DNA of 64,000 bases from Escherichia coli (GTDB lineage Bacteria; Pseudomonadota; Gammaproteobacteria; Enterobacterales; Enterobacteriaceae), in assembly GCF_016903815.1 (NCBI RefSeq), contig NZ_CP069973.1. The stretch is one strand, 5' to 3'. This document shows, piece by piece, positions 9,001 through 12,000 of this stretch. The position numbers are program-made. Each line of letters starts with the position of its first letter. Position 1 is the stretch's first letter.

Positions 9001-12000
9001 CTGTTTGTACTTTGTCTCAGGAATTACTTACGAAGCATAACTTCGATAAAGTCTTTCCAGTTCCCCAGTTCACGTTCAATCATAACAACCTCTCTTATAA
9101 TTATGGGTATTCTACGGAAACAATATACCGTGGTGAAGCTAATTTACTCGATTGCTGCGATGACTACCTCCGGGGGACAAACCTTATGTAAATACTATGG
9201 TCCTGCGGTGATGATTTGTATGTGATACACAGCAACATTTCGAGATATTCATACGGCATCTAATACTGATTTAATTCTGGTTAAAATACAGGCAGATAAC
9301 AAGATGAATATTCTTAATGTTTACGTTAAAAATGTTTAATATTATTTAATAGTTGTTAATTTGAATACTTCGATAATGTTATATTTCCTGATAATCATTT
9401 GCAGGCAAAATGTTTTCACCCTTAAATGAGTATTTATTCTCATAAATCGAAAAAGGATTCATTATGGTTACACTTTACGGCATCAAAAATTGTGACACCA
9501 TTAAAAAGGCTCGCCGTTGGCTGGAAGCCAATAACATCGACTATCGTTTTCATGATTACCGCGTCGATGGGCTGGACAGCGAATTATTGAACGGTTTTAT
9601 CAACGAATTAGGCTGGGAAGCGTTACTCAACACCCGTGGTACAACCTGGCGTAAACTGGACGAAACCACCCGCAATAAAATCATCGATGCGGCCTCTGCG
9701 GCGGCATTAATGACTGAAATGCCTGCAATTATCAAACGTCCATTGCTCTGCGCGCCTGGTAAGCCTATGCTGCTGGGTTTCAGTGATTCCAGTTATCAGC
9801 AATTTTTCCATGAGGTGTAGTCTATGTCGTGCCCGGTTATTGAGCTGACACAACAGCTTATTCGCCGCCCTTCCCTGAGTCCTGATGATGCAGGATGCCA
9901 GGCTTTGTTGATTGAACGTTTGCAGGCGATCGGTTTTACCGTTGAACGCATGGACTTTGCCGATACGCAGAATTTTTGGGCATGGCGTGGGCAAGGTGAA
10001 ACGTTGGCCTTTGCCGGGCATACCGACGTGGTGCCGCCTGGCGACGCCGATCGTTGGATCAATCCGCCGTTTGAACCCACCATTCGTGACGGCATGTTAT
10101 TCGGGCGCGGTGCGGCAGATATGAAAGGCTCGCTGGCGGCGATGGTGGTAGCGGCAGAACGCTTTGTCGCACAACATCCCAACCATACGGGGCGACTGGC
10201 ATTTCTGATCACTTCTGATGAAGAAGCCAGTGCCCATAACGGTACGGTAAAAGTCGTCGAAGCGTTAATGGCGCGTAATGAGCGTCTCGATTACTGCCTG
10301 GTCGGCGAACCGTCGAGTATCGAAGTGGTTGGTGATGTGGTGAAAAATGGTCGTCGCGGATCGTTAACCTGCAACCTCACCATTCATGGCGTGCAGGGGC
10401 ATGTTGCCTACCCACATCTGGCTGACAATCCGGTACATCGCGCAGCACCTTTCCTTAATGAATTAGTGGCTATTGAGTGGGATCAGGGCAATGAATTCTT
10501 CCCGGCGACCAGTATGCAGATTGCCAATATTCAGGCGGGAACGGGCAGTAACAACGTTATTCCGGGTGAACTGTTTGTGCAGTTTAACTTCCGCTTCAGC
10601 ACCGAACTGACTGATGAGATGATCAAAGCGCAGGTACTTGCCCTGCTTGAAAAACATCAACTGCGCTATACGGTGGATTGGTGGCTTTCCGGGCAGCCAT
10701 TTTTGACCGCGCGCGGTAAACTGGTGGATGCGGTCGTTAACGCGGTTGAGCACTATAATGAAATTAAACCGCAGCTACTGACCACAGGCGGAACGTCCGA
10801 CGGGCGCTTTATTGCCCGCATGGGGGCGCAGGTGGTGGAACTCGGGCCGGTCAATGCCACTATTCATAAAATTAATGAATGTGTGAACGCTGCCGACCTG
10901 CAGCTACTTGCCCGTATGTATCAACGTATCATGGAACAGCTCGTCGCCTGATGAGTGGTTCTGCAAGAGGAAATAAGCATGGACTGGCTGGCTAAATATT
11001 GGTGGATTCTGGTGATTGTCTTTTTGGTAGGCGTCCTGCTGAACGTGATTAAAGATCTCAAGCGCGTCGACCATAAGAAATTTCTCGCCAACAAGCCGGA
11101 GCTTCCCCCGCATCGTGATTTCAACGATAAGTGGGACGATGACGACGACTGGCCGAAAAAGGATCAACCGAAGAAGTAAGCTGAGCGGCCGGATAAGGCG
11201 TTCACGCCACATCCGGCCATGATGCCTGATACAGTCTTATCAGGCCTACCCGGCTATTATTACATCATTTCAATCACATCATCATCGCCAGGCTTACCGC
11301 CGCTTAGCGCTTCGTCGAAATAATGTTTCGGAATGGTATAACGCAAGTGATCCAGGGCAAATTGCATACTGCGATTGTCGATCGCATGGCCTAAATCCTC
11401 CACGATATCCAGCGTCACGTCACCACCGGCACTGATTAACGCTTCCTGCGCCGCAACCGCATGCGCCAGATCGATAACCGGATCTTCACCGCCATGAATC
11501 AAGTGAATTGTCGTGGCTGTAGACGCGGTTTCCGGCAGGCTCGCGTAGCGTCCGTTGAAGGCAATGACGCGCGAAGCAAGGCCCGGTTCGGCTTTAATGC
11601 TCTCCAGCGCCATAATCGCGCCTTGTGAGAAACCGATTAGCGCCGTGGCGTTAGCCCCTACTCCGCTTTGTTTCTGCCAGTAGCGTACCGTTTCAATAAA
11701 CGTCGACATGATGGCATCCACACGCTCCTGGCGATTATCTTCCGTAATACCCTGCACCGAAAACCACTGACGCCCCGCCGGATTACCGCTCGGCTCCGCG
11801 CCACCGACACTCACCACCAGCGCATCAGGAAACAGCGGTGCAAACCAGCTACCTATTTCCCCCATTGCCACCGGGTTATCCCCGACACCGTGGAAAAGCA
11901 GTAACAACTGTTGCGCAGGTTTATCCGGGCTTTGAACAACAAAATGGTCATGTTTCATGGCGAACTCCTTAACTGATGTCATTAATTTTACGCCGCTGAC

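Follow-up and report, generated by a model that had tools for sequence, protein, structure and literature searches.

The ypfM and yffB genes of Escherichia coli diverge from an AT-rich spacer of 380 bp (9084–9463), and the question raised by this locus is what the spacer contains: the original prediction was that it could hold a complex promoter or an unannotated small RNA. The names and positions assigned to the genes and the spacer are correct as judged from a reading of the sequence and from the list of open reading frames, which puts the yffB start at 9464. The composition is also as unusual as had been claimed, with a G+C content of 31.6% compared with 52.2% for the window (the whole 64,000-nt stretch of DNA that was analyzed) and only 24.9% in the sub-part 9255–9463. 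Of the 380-bp windows that can be drawn from the 64 kb, only 0.23% are equally AT-rich, and the sole other region of this kind is 46986–47867, which comprises the divergent pdeF–yfgG spacer and the yfgG–yfgH spacer. Of 5426 complete E. coli genomes, 5425 carry the ypfM–yffB spacer, mostly in single copy; no feature is annotated within it among the E. coli genomes listed, and the segment 9024–9463 is identical to K-12 MG1655 except for the two bases 9182 and 9292. We dissected the spacer by comparing ~75 Enterobacterales loci, and the resulting features are collected in Table 1. The region is ordinary and largely known already, with the spacer partly catalogued, and we consider it likely that it serves two known E. 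coli core-genome transcription units as their divergent control region.

Table 1. Features of the acrD–ypfM–yffB interval (positions are those of the window)
Feature	Position	Strand	Basis and details
Bidirectional intrinsic terminator common to acrD (+) and ypfM (−)	8930–8965		Terminator scan, inverted repeat
Match to Rfam RF01409 (STnc250), 3' part of ypfM mRNA	8925–9044	−	Covariance model
Extra hairpin in the ypfM 3' UTR, Escherichia-specific	8976–9000	−	Inverted repeat I5, terminator-like match
ypfM CDS, 19 aa + stop	9083–9024	−	Sequence, K-12 b4606, RefSeq, Pfam PF28148, coding signature, mass spectrometry
Short P1 leader	9084–9102	−	Shine-Dalgarno AAGAGAGG and A-R-N repeats
ypfM P1	9109–9137	−	−35 TTCACC 9137–9132, 17-nt spacer, −10 TAGAAT 9114–9109; predicted start ~9102
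Conserved block upstream of P1	9140–9164		Alignments; two GATTGC direct repeats 9 bp apart
Candidate ypfM P2	9187–9199	−	−10 CATAGT 9199–9194; predicted start A at 9187, preceded by C
CRP-like 22-bp site, ATTGC-N6-TCACA	9218–9239	−	Centred at −41.5 of predicted P2 start
Conserved A/T-rich flank	9240–9250	−	TTTCAAAAT in most genera; −53 to −63, upstream of CRP-like site
AT-rich tract	9255–9375		Composition (23% G+C); not conserved between genera
yffB-dapE-ypfN promoter	9377–9385	+	Extended −10 TG-T-TATATT (TGTTATATT); predicted start ~9393
yffB 5' UTR, ~71 nt	9393–9463	+	Inferred from promoter position; Shine-Dalgarno AAGGA 9453–9457
yffB (ArsC-family reductase)	9464–9820	+	ORF list, annotation

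The tiny ypfM reading frame is a real, translated gene as had been supposed, but it is not easy to miss, since it is already annotated by RefSeq in the E. coli genomes listed and carries the name b4606 in K-12. The reverse complement of 9024–9083 is ATGATTGAACGTGAACTGGGGAACTGGAAAGACTTTATCGAAGTTATGCTTCGTAAGTAA, which translates to MIERELGNWKDFIEVMLRK followed by a stop codon and matches the 19-residue pattern MIE[RH]ELGNWKDFIExMLRK. A length of 19 codons is by itself within chance expectation. The frame nevertheless shows a coding signature, in that the alignment varies in 7, 4 and 15 columns at the first, second and third codon position, respectively, with mostly synonymous substitutions (182 versus 94). 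It lies between acrD and yffB and is divergent from the latter, a position upstream of yffB that 71 of the 80 loci of other Enterobacterales species retain, and the peptide encoded here is identical to that of Citrobacter, Salmonella and other genera. Pfam family PF28148 is recorded for the Salmonella copy, and top-down mass spectrometry has picked up the protein, with a formyl-Met and at 100% coverage (PMC12529367). The ribosome-binding site is as good as the original prediction held it to be: a strong Shine-Dalgarno sequence, AAGAGAGG, ends 5 nt ahead of the ATG. The ypfM gene is already known, annotated and experimentally supported, and its product is nearly invariant across the Enterobacteriaceae and has no known function.

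The terminator that acrD and ypfM share has a stem of 14 pairs flanked on either side by T runs, contains a perfect 12-nt inverted repeat (8932–8943/8952–8963) and is kept across genera; the small ypfM mRNA would end here. In Salmonella, this mRNA is the RNA known as STnc250, which gives a Northern band of ~220 nt and is enriched 4-fold by Hfq co-immunoprecipitation (Sittka 2008). The E. coli sequence scores 37.5 bits (E 1.5e-5) against the STnc250 model, below the gathering score of 42, and the Salmonella orthologue reaches 125.3 bits at the equivalent position. By Rfam's own threshold the E. coli sequence is not a member of the STnc250 family, but it is the positional orthologue. No other RNA family is seen in the neighbourhood, and STnc250 itself falls outside the spacer. 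The extra hairpin of the 3' UTR is missing from the alignments of Citrobacter and other genera.

In the spacer itself, the suggestion of a complex promoter is borne out: ypfM P1 and the yffB extended −10 are both conserved, which makes at least two promoters, and there may well be a third (ypfM P2 with its activator site). The spacer also contains the AT-rich tract; in genomic SELEX, the spacer is marked HNS and both genes have listed promoters (PMC3946193). Conservation of the spacer, which had been proposed as a check, extends to the promoter parts and to a module of ~60 bp, but the tract 9255–9375 has not been kept. P1 was found by a promoter scan, and the SELEX catalogue lists the same hexamers for ypfM (PMC3946193). 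Its CTTCACA and GTAGAAT elements are conserved across genera with a variable 17 nt between them. The leader that would follow from the predicted P1 start is nearly invariant in 30 genera, and its A-R-N repeats, which read AAU AAU AAG AGA in most of these, could plausibly form an Hfq distal-face site. The block with the GATTGC repeats occupies −48 to −62 of P1 and corresponds to +23 to +47 of the predicted P2 transcript.

For yffB, the extended −10 element TGTTATATT (in one case TGGTATATT) is present in 34 of the 82 loci and in nine genera, with the TG one base before the hexamer that defines this class. The Salmonella yffB start has been published at −97, i.e. 97 nt upstream of yffB, and a fusion has been built from this mapped start; it corresponds to position 2904 of the Salmonella locus (L082), 8 nt past the hexamer at 2891–2896. 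The predicted E. coli start is at ~9393. The SELEX catalogue predicts another yffB promoter, TTCATA-16-TTTAAT, at 9248–9275 (PMC3946193). This sequence is not conserved and is probably not the promoter in use; the conserved extended −10 agrees with the mapped Salmonella start. Within the yffB 5' UTR, the Shine-Dalgarno sequence alone is conserved and no stable fold is found (z +0.44); in Salmonella, the yffB 5' UTR is published as mediating repression by the small RNA SdsR. A Fur-box-like sequence, TGATAATCATT, at 9389–9399 was set aside, being confined to Escherichia and with the predicted Salmonella Fur site elsewhere in the leader.

The module at 9187–9250 is held at 135–151 nt from the ypfM ATG, as compared with 129–694 nt from the yffB ATG, and consists of an ungapped 60-nt architecture in which TCACA and TTGC are invariant and CATAKT is conserved, with a CA dinucleotide at −1/+1. 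Among 57 distinct sequences, TCACA is 96–100% and TTGC 98–100% conserved, the positions of the −10 are 88–100% conserved, and the C at −1 and A at +1 are found in 68% and 74%, respectively. Read on the plus strand, the same CRP-like site appears as TGTGA (9221–9225) and GCAA (9232–9235). It matches TGTGA-N6-TCACA at 7 of 10 core positions, a level that chance alone would produce about once in every 380 bp, and the site is therefore notable for its placement and conservation alone. Its centre falls at −41.5 when counted from the predicted start at 9187, which is itself taken from the −10 and the CA dinucleotide. The Escherichia module differs from the consensus of the other genera by four substitutions. 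Kosakonia and Mangrovibacter retain ATTGC-N6-TCACA; Cedecea and Buttiauxella retain TCACAT followed 20–21 nt on by a −10-like hexamer, with a different upstream half-site and a spacing that does not fit CRP. The −10, CATAGT, is weak and reads equally well as TACTAT on the plus strand, and we found no literature linking ypfM or yffB to CRP.

These features suggest that ypfM possibly has a second, undescribed promoter, with CRP as its putative activator. The fuller proposal, which could well be right and which we put forward tentatively, is that the module is an activator-dependent ypfM promoter with CRP or another factor bound at −41.5, that the long-leader mRNA made from it is the main species in Salmonella, and that the GATTGC repeats at 9140–9164 are regulatory elements within its leader. 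For Salmonella, a ypfM RNA started at P2 is predicted to measure ~229 nt and one started at P1 ~148 nt; the published band is ~220 nt. The E. coli counterparts would be ~259 and ~174 nt, respectively. Such a conserved activator-dependent promoter would tie YpfM expression to a specific physiological signal and would help to establish when the cell requires this protein.

We give a smaller, though still appreciable, chance to the idea that the module and the block at 9140–9164 contain no promoter and form an upstream platform from which one or more transcription factors or nucleoid proteins regulate P1, at −85 to −150. In favour of this, the module keeps its distance to ypfM, P1 already has the good hexamers of a well-conserved sigma-70 promoter, both conserved blocks contain the words GCAAT/ATTGC and TGTGA, and a MarA ChIP-seq peak has been published in the Salmonella ypfM–yffB spacer. 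The peak is within ~56 bp of the conserved module, a proximity that is not decisive because the peak-to-site offsets in the same table reach ~120 bp, and a marbox (MarA/SoxS/Rob) can be matched in the module only with the AAA element shifted by 1–2 bp. What a platform leaves unexplained is CATAKT with CA 7 nt further on, the constant 21-nt distance between TCACA and the hexamer, and a Salmonella RNA of ~220 nt that exceeds the P1 prediction by ~70 nt. Among other regulators compared with the module by eye, FNR, ArgR, MetR, KdgR, Cra, Zur, MntR and LexA do not fit, nor do sigma-54, sigma-32, sigma-E or sigma-28 elements or a MerR-type long spacer. It is improbable that the module is instead a distal plus-strand promoter, with TACTAT (9193–9198) as its −10, from which yffB-dapE would be read with a long leader, or which would produce a short non-coding plus-strand RNA with the conserved module at its 5' end. 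TACTAT has a conserved A at −11 and T at −7 and is followed by a G, SELEX finds RNA polymerase binding in the spacer in both directions (PMC3946193), and Salmonella has a weak hairpin with a T-run just downstream. However, T, C and A all occur at the first hexamer position, neither a −35 nor a TG is conserved, and the distance to yffB ranges from 129 to 694 nt across intervening sequence that is not conserved; the mapped Salmonella yffB start at −97 is also far downstream. The hairpin between CATAGT and the TCACA block, which at first sight is GC-rich and covarying and might serve as a plus-strand terminator, is missing in many genera, where the fold is 0 kcal/mol.

That the spacer encodes an unannotated small RNA, the other half of the original prediction, is very improbable. 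Its appeal lies in the length of the spacer and in the first cataloguing of the ypfM mRNA as an Hfq-bound small RNA candidate, but all three matches of the terminator scan are at 8930–9003 and none is within 9084–9463, no Rfam match rises above noise inside the spacer, and no conserved secondary structure was found in its conserved part. RNAalifold returns neither pairs nor covariation for the long ypfM leader, the folding energies of the spacer are no better than those of shuffled sequence (z +0.3 to +1.2), and the AT-rich part is not conserved. A hidden small RNA in the spacer is thus not supported. An anti-Shine-Dalgarno pairing, CUUCUCUCU with AGAGAG, can be drawn in Salmonella and Citrobacter and is reduced to 4 bp in E. 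coli; repeats in the region are short and at chance level only. More improbable still is a second tiny protein, MNISKCCCVSHTNHHRRTIVFT, encoded by the conserved module in the minus-strand ORF 9252–9184. This ORF exists, its first codons overlap the module and Citrobacter has the same MNISK, but the start codon is missing outside Escherichia and Citrobacter, the frame diverges wholly after residue 5 and has varied ends, and there is neither three-base periodicity in the conservation nor a Shine-Dalgarno sequence. Like this ORF, the minus-strand ORF 9259–9164, the plus-strand ATG at 9197 and an 11-codon ORF in the yffB leader (9410–9445) are not conserved.

In the arrangement that we propose, ypfM would be transcribed from two tandem promoters, with P1 yielding a 19-nt leader and P2 a leader of ~104 nt. 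P2 lacks a −35 and, with its CRP-like site at −41.5, would have class II activator-dependent geometry. The yffB-dapE-ypfN operon would be transcribed in the opposite direction from the extended −10 promoter, with a poorly conserved leader. In NC_000913.3, the predicted starts of P1, P2 and yffB correspond to 2590885, 2590970 and 2591176. The ~120 bp that separate P2 from the yffB promoter are most likely bendable DNA that, with nucleoid proteins such as H-NS, would damp or insulate the divergent units; from its composition, the tract 9255–9375 in particular may be where H-NS binds. Expression of yffB-dapE must be maintained because dapE is needed for cell-wall synthesis.

The E. coli ypfM mRNA resembles Salmonella STnc250 in its identical peptide, its position between acrD and yffB, its terminator and its Shine-Dalgarno sequence, and differs from it in a diverged 3' UTR with an extra hairpin and a score under the gathering cut-off. 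The yffB promoter has nothing unusual for an extended −10 (TGn) sigma-70 promoter, having TG one base before TATATT and no recognisable −35, although Klebsiella, Kluyvera and their relatives lack the TG. In its low G+C content, divergent genes and HNS SELEX flag, the spacer is similar to the AT-rich, H-NS-bound divergent regions of E. coli such as pdeF–yfgG in the same window; it differs in that its flanking genes are core genes and not horizontally acquired. Candidate P2 departs from class II CRP promoters in a strongly conserved A/T-rich flank that exceeds what CRP requires and in a distal half-site that does not fit CRP in some genera, and the comparison depends on a predicted start and putative CRP binding. 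It resembles the class, of which galP1 is an example, in a site that would be centred at −41.5, a perfect TCACA with its flanking T at −38 to −34, a weak distal ATTGC 6 bp away, no −35 hexamer and a weak −10. The same pair of half-sites is found in the araBAD CRP site, TTTGC-N6-TCACA.

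The window is E. coli chromosomal DNA. Of 5426 complete E. coli genomes, 5425 carry the segment 8900–9500 at ≥95% identity, and 9024–9463 has two base differences from K-12 MG1655. As originally predicted, the spacer between ypfM and yffB is AT-rich, with a G+C content of 31.6% (24.9% over 9255–9463) compared with 52.2% for the whole window, and it falls in the lowest 0.23% of 380-bp windows across the 64 kb. In genomic SELEX it is entered among the divergent promoter regions, with the mark HNS (PMC3946193). The sole other stretch in the 64 kb that is equally AT-rich, 46986–47867 (down to 21% G+C in 200 bp), covers the divergent pdeF(yfgF)–yfgG spacer (47141–47491) and the yfgG–yfgH spacer (47684–47993), and the former likewise carries the HNS mark (PMC3946193).

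Features of the ypfM–yffB region, in window coordinates
Feature	Position	Strand	Detail
acrD	5812–8925	+	
ypfM	9083..9024	-	19-codon ORF
Spacer	9084–9463		380 bp
P1 (ypfM promoter)	-35 TTCACC 9137..9132; -10 TAGAAT 9114..9109	-	17-nt spacer; promoter scan
yffB extended -10	9377–9385	+	TGTTATATT
yffB	9464–9820	+	
dapE	9824–10951	+	
ypfN, ypfH			after dapE
Conserved island			ypfM leader and P1
Conserved island	9140–9164		
Conserved island	9193–9250		
Conserved island	9376–9386		
Conserved island			yffB Shine-Dalgarno

That ypfM is a real gene is virtually certain. The ORF, its peptide MIERELGNWKDFIEVMLRK and the Shine-Dalgarno sequence AAGAGAGG are all as first described, and the gene is annotated in K-12 (b4606) and in the RefSeq genomes listed, with a product in Pfam family PF28148. 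The peptide is nearly invariant across the compared genera; variable columns number 7, 4 and 15 at codon positions 1, 2 and 3, a concentration at the third position, and codon differences are 182 synonymous versus 94 non-synonymous. YpfM has repeatedly been detected by mass spectrometry, including an intact form with formyl-Met (PMC12529367). The Salmonella ypfM transcript is STnc250, a stable, growth-phase-dependent mRNA of ∼220 nt that is 4-fold enriched with Hfq (PMC2515195). The Rfam STnc250 model matches 8925–9044 on the minus strand with 37.5 bits, just below the gathering score of 42, and scores 125 bits on the Salmonella orthologue. Downstream of dapE, the mechanical ypfN ORF (10955–11179, 74 aa) has a GTG start at 10955; the K-12 annotation is 66 aa, starting 24 nt further downstream at the equivalent of 10979.

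The original prediction offered two possibilities for the spacer, a complex promoter or an unannotated small RNA. The small RNA is unsupported: the spacer interior has no terminator-like site, Rfam match or notable repeat, and the genomes listed carry no RefSeq-annotated feature in the spacer. Folded singly, neither the two leaders nor either strand of the AT-rich tract comes out stabler than shuffles (z +0.3 to +1.2). For 30 leaders running from the predicted start of P2 (a candidate second ypfM promoter upstream of P1) into ypfM, RNAalifold found no leader pairs and no covariation, and the GC-rich segment within P2 is not a conserved hairpin. The complex promoter proved the right choice, as the spacer holds P1, an extended -10 promoter for yffB and the candidate P2.

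P1 is likely a genuine promoter. Genomic SELEX gives the identical TTCACC-17-TAGAAT for ypfM (PMC3946193), and CTTCACA and GTAGAAT are conserved across genera around 17 variable nucleotides, the signature of a real promoter. Its predicted start near 9102 leaves a 19-nt leader of A-R-N repeats plus the Shine-Dalgarno sequence, plausibly an Hfq site. At -48 to -62 lie two GATTGC direct repeats (9150–9164, 9 bp apart), conserved across genera, of which the second is degenerate in the window (GCGATG); an inverted copy of the motif (GCAAT) sits about 75 bp away, in the conserved block upstream. Comparison of these repeats with known factors gave no match.

The yffB promoter is very likely correct. 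Its extended -10 occurs in 34 loci (once as TGGTATATT) from Escherichia, Citrobacter, Salmonella, Enterobacter, Leclercia, Lelliottia, Silvania, Huaxiibacter and Intestinirhabdus. In Salmonella the small RNA SdsR represses yffB, as studied with a fusion from -97, the mapped start, to +75 (PMC5137417). In the Salmonella locus L082, yffB starts at 3001, so that -97 is position 2904, 8 nt past the hexamer (2891–2896); by analogy, the E. coli start would lie near 9393, with a leader of 71 nt. For yffB–ypfN, genomic SELEX gives another promoter, TTCATA-16-TTTAAT (PMC3946193), at 9248–9275, which is not conserved in the cross-genera comparison. A Fur-box-like TGATAATCATT (9389–9399) at the predicted yffB start is confined to Escherichia. 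In a Salmonella fur mutant yffB is mildly derepressed (2.6-fold up), and the predicted Salmonella Fur site lies at a different point of the leader (L082 2968–2985).

A YffB scan of one genome per species yielded 80 loci, 71 of them with ypfM divergently upstream at spacer lengths of 202–1041 bp (mode near 387). Conservation of the spacer, the check put forward with the original prediction, was found in part: in an alignment of 30 spacers, islands conserved across genera alternate with unconserved sequence, and the most AT-rich part, 9255–9375, shows no conservation between genera. The spacer is a divergent control region. Transcription of ypfM starts at P1 and probably at an upstream, activator-dependent P2 as well, translation begins from a strong Shine-Dalgarno sequence adjoining the likely Hfq site, and the transcript ends at a terminator shared with acrD. 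The yffB-dapE-ypfN unit is transcribed from the extended -10 promoter, which lies about 190 bp away from P2, and the unconserved AT-rich DNA between the units, reported to be H-NS-bound, probably modulates or insulates both.

In E. coli strain elppa9, an IS200C with a frameshifted tnpA lies between the acrD and ypfM stop codons (corresponding to ∼8926–9023, the ypfM 3' region) and would cut ypfM off from its terminator. E. coli strain 81 has lost acrD, ypfM and the half of the spacer nearer ypfM through an IS1A-associated deletion, so at least one natural isolate can dispense with ypfM; aegA now adjoins the IS, the junction is at about 9254, and the ∼210 bp kept upstream of yffB include the conserved extended -10 promoter. 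The species representative SCPM-O-B-8794, labelled E. coli, has a clearly diverged spacer and a YffB that shares only 90% identity with that of the window; it is probably a member of a cryptic Escherichia lineage and not of E. coli proper.

Both ypfM and the kind of region that the spacer represents had been described before; what is new, in a modest way, is the candidate P2. A plus-strand 26-nt pattern, ATGTGACnnACnGCAATATTTTGAAA, occurs in the window and in 55 species loci out of the 71 that carry ypfM, 135–151 nt from the ypfM ATG versus 129–694 nt from that of yffB, a near-constant distance that assigns the module to ypfM. On the minus strand the module reads, gap-free over ∼60 nt, TTTCAAAATATTGC-nGTnnG-TCACAT-AAAATTTA-(13 variable, GC-rich)-CATAKT-n6-CA. 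Across 57 distinct sequences TCACA is 96–100% conserved, TTGC 98–100% and the CATAKT positions 88–100%, with C at -1 in 68% and A at +1 in 74%. The ATTGC-N6-TCACA arrangement persists in Kosakonia and Mangrovibacter; in Cedecea, Dryocola and Buttiauxella TCACAT is retained, with a -10-like hexamer 20–21 nt later, but the distal half differs.

With the 3' end set by the STnc250 model (about 2456–2462 in L082), the Salmonella ypfM RNA is predicted to be ∼148 nt from P1 and ∼229 nt from P2. The published Northern estimate of ∼220 nt (PMC2515195) is one independent observation in favor of P2; the E. coli predictions are ∼174 and ∼259 nt. A Salmonella MarA ChIP peak falls within the spacer; in our mapping its published coordinate is ∼56 bp away from the motif called for it, which in L082 reads TTTATCAAATCGGGT, with one mismatch to the published site. 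The peak would sit on the conserved TGTGAC...GCAAT block (L082 2721–2783 corresponds to ∼9220–9285), but this is only a hint because offsets this large are common in that table.

On balance we give P2 an even chance of being a promoter. Reading CATAGT (9199..9194) as its -10 predicts a start at 9187, and the 22-mer ATTGC-N6-TCACA (9239..9218) is then centered exactly at -41.5. P2 has no -35 hexamer, and its predicted geometry, with a CRP-type half-site at -41.5, resembles that of class II activator promoters. CRP itself is a possible, though somewhat doubtful, candidate for the factor acting there; the CRP site of araBAD, TTTGC-N6-TCACA, has the same half-site pair as the module, a likeness that serves as a lead only.
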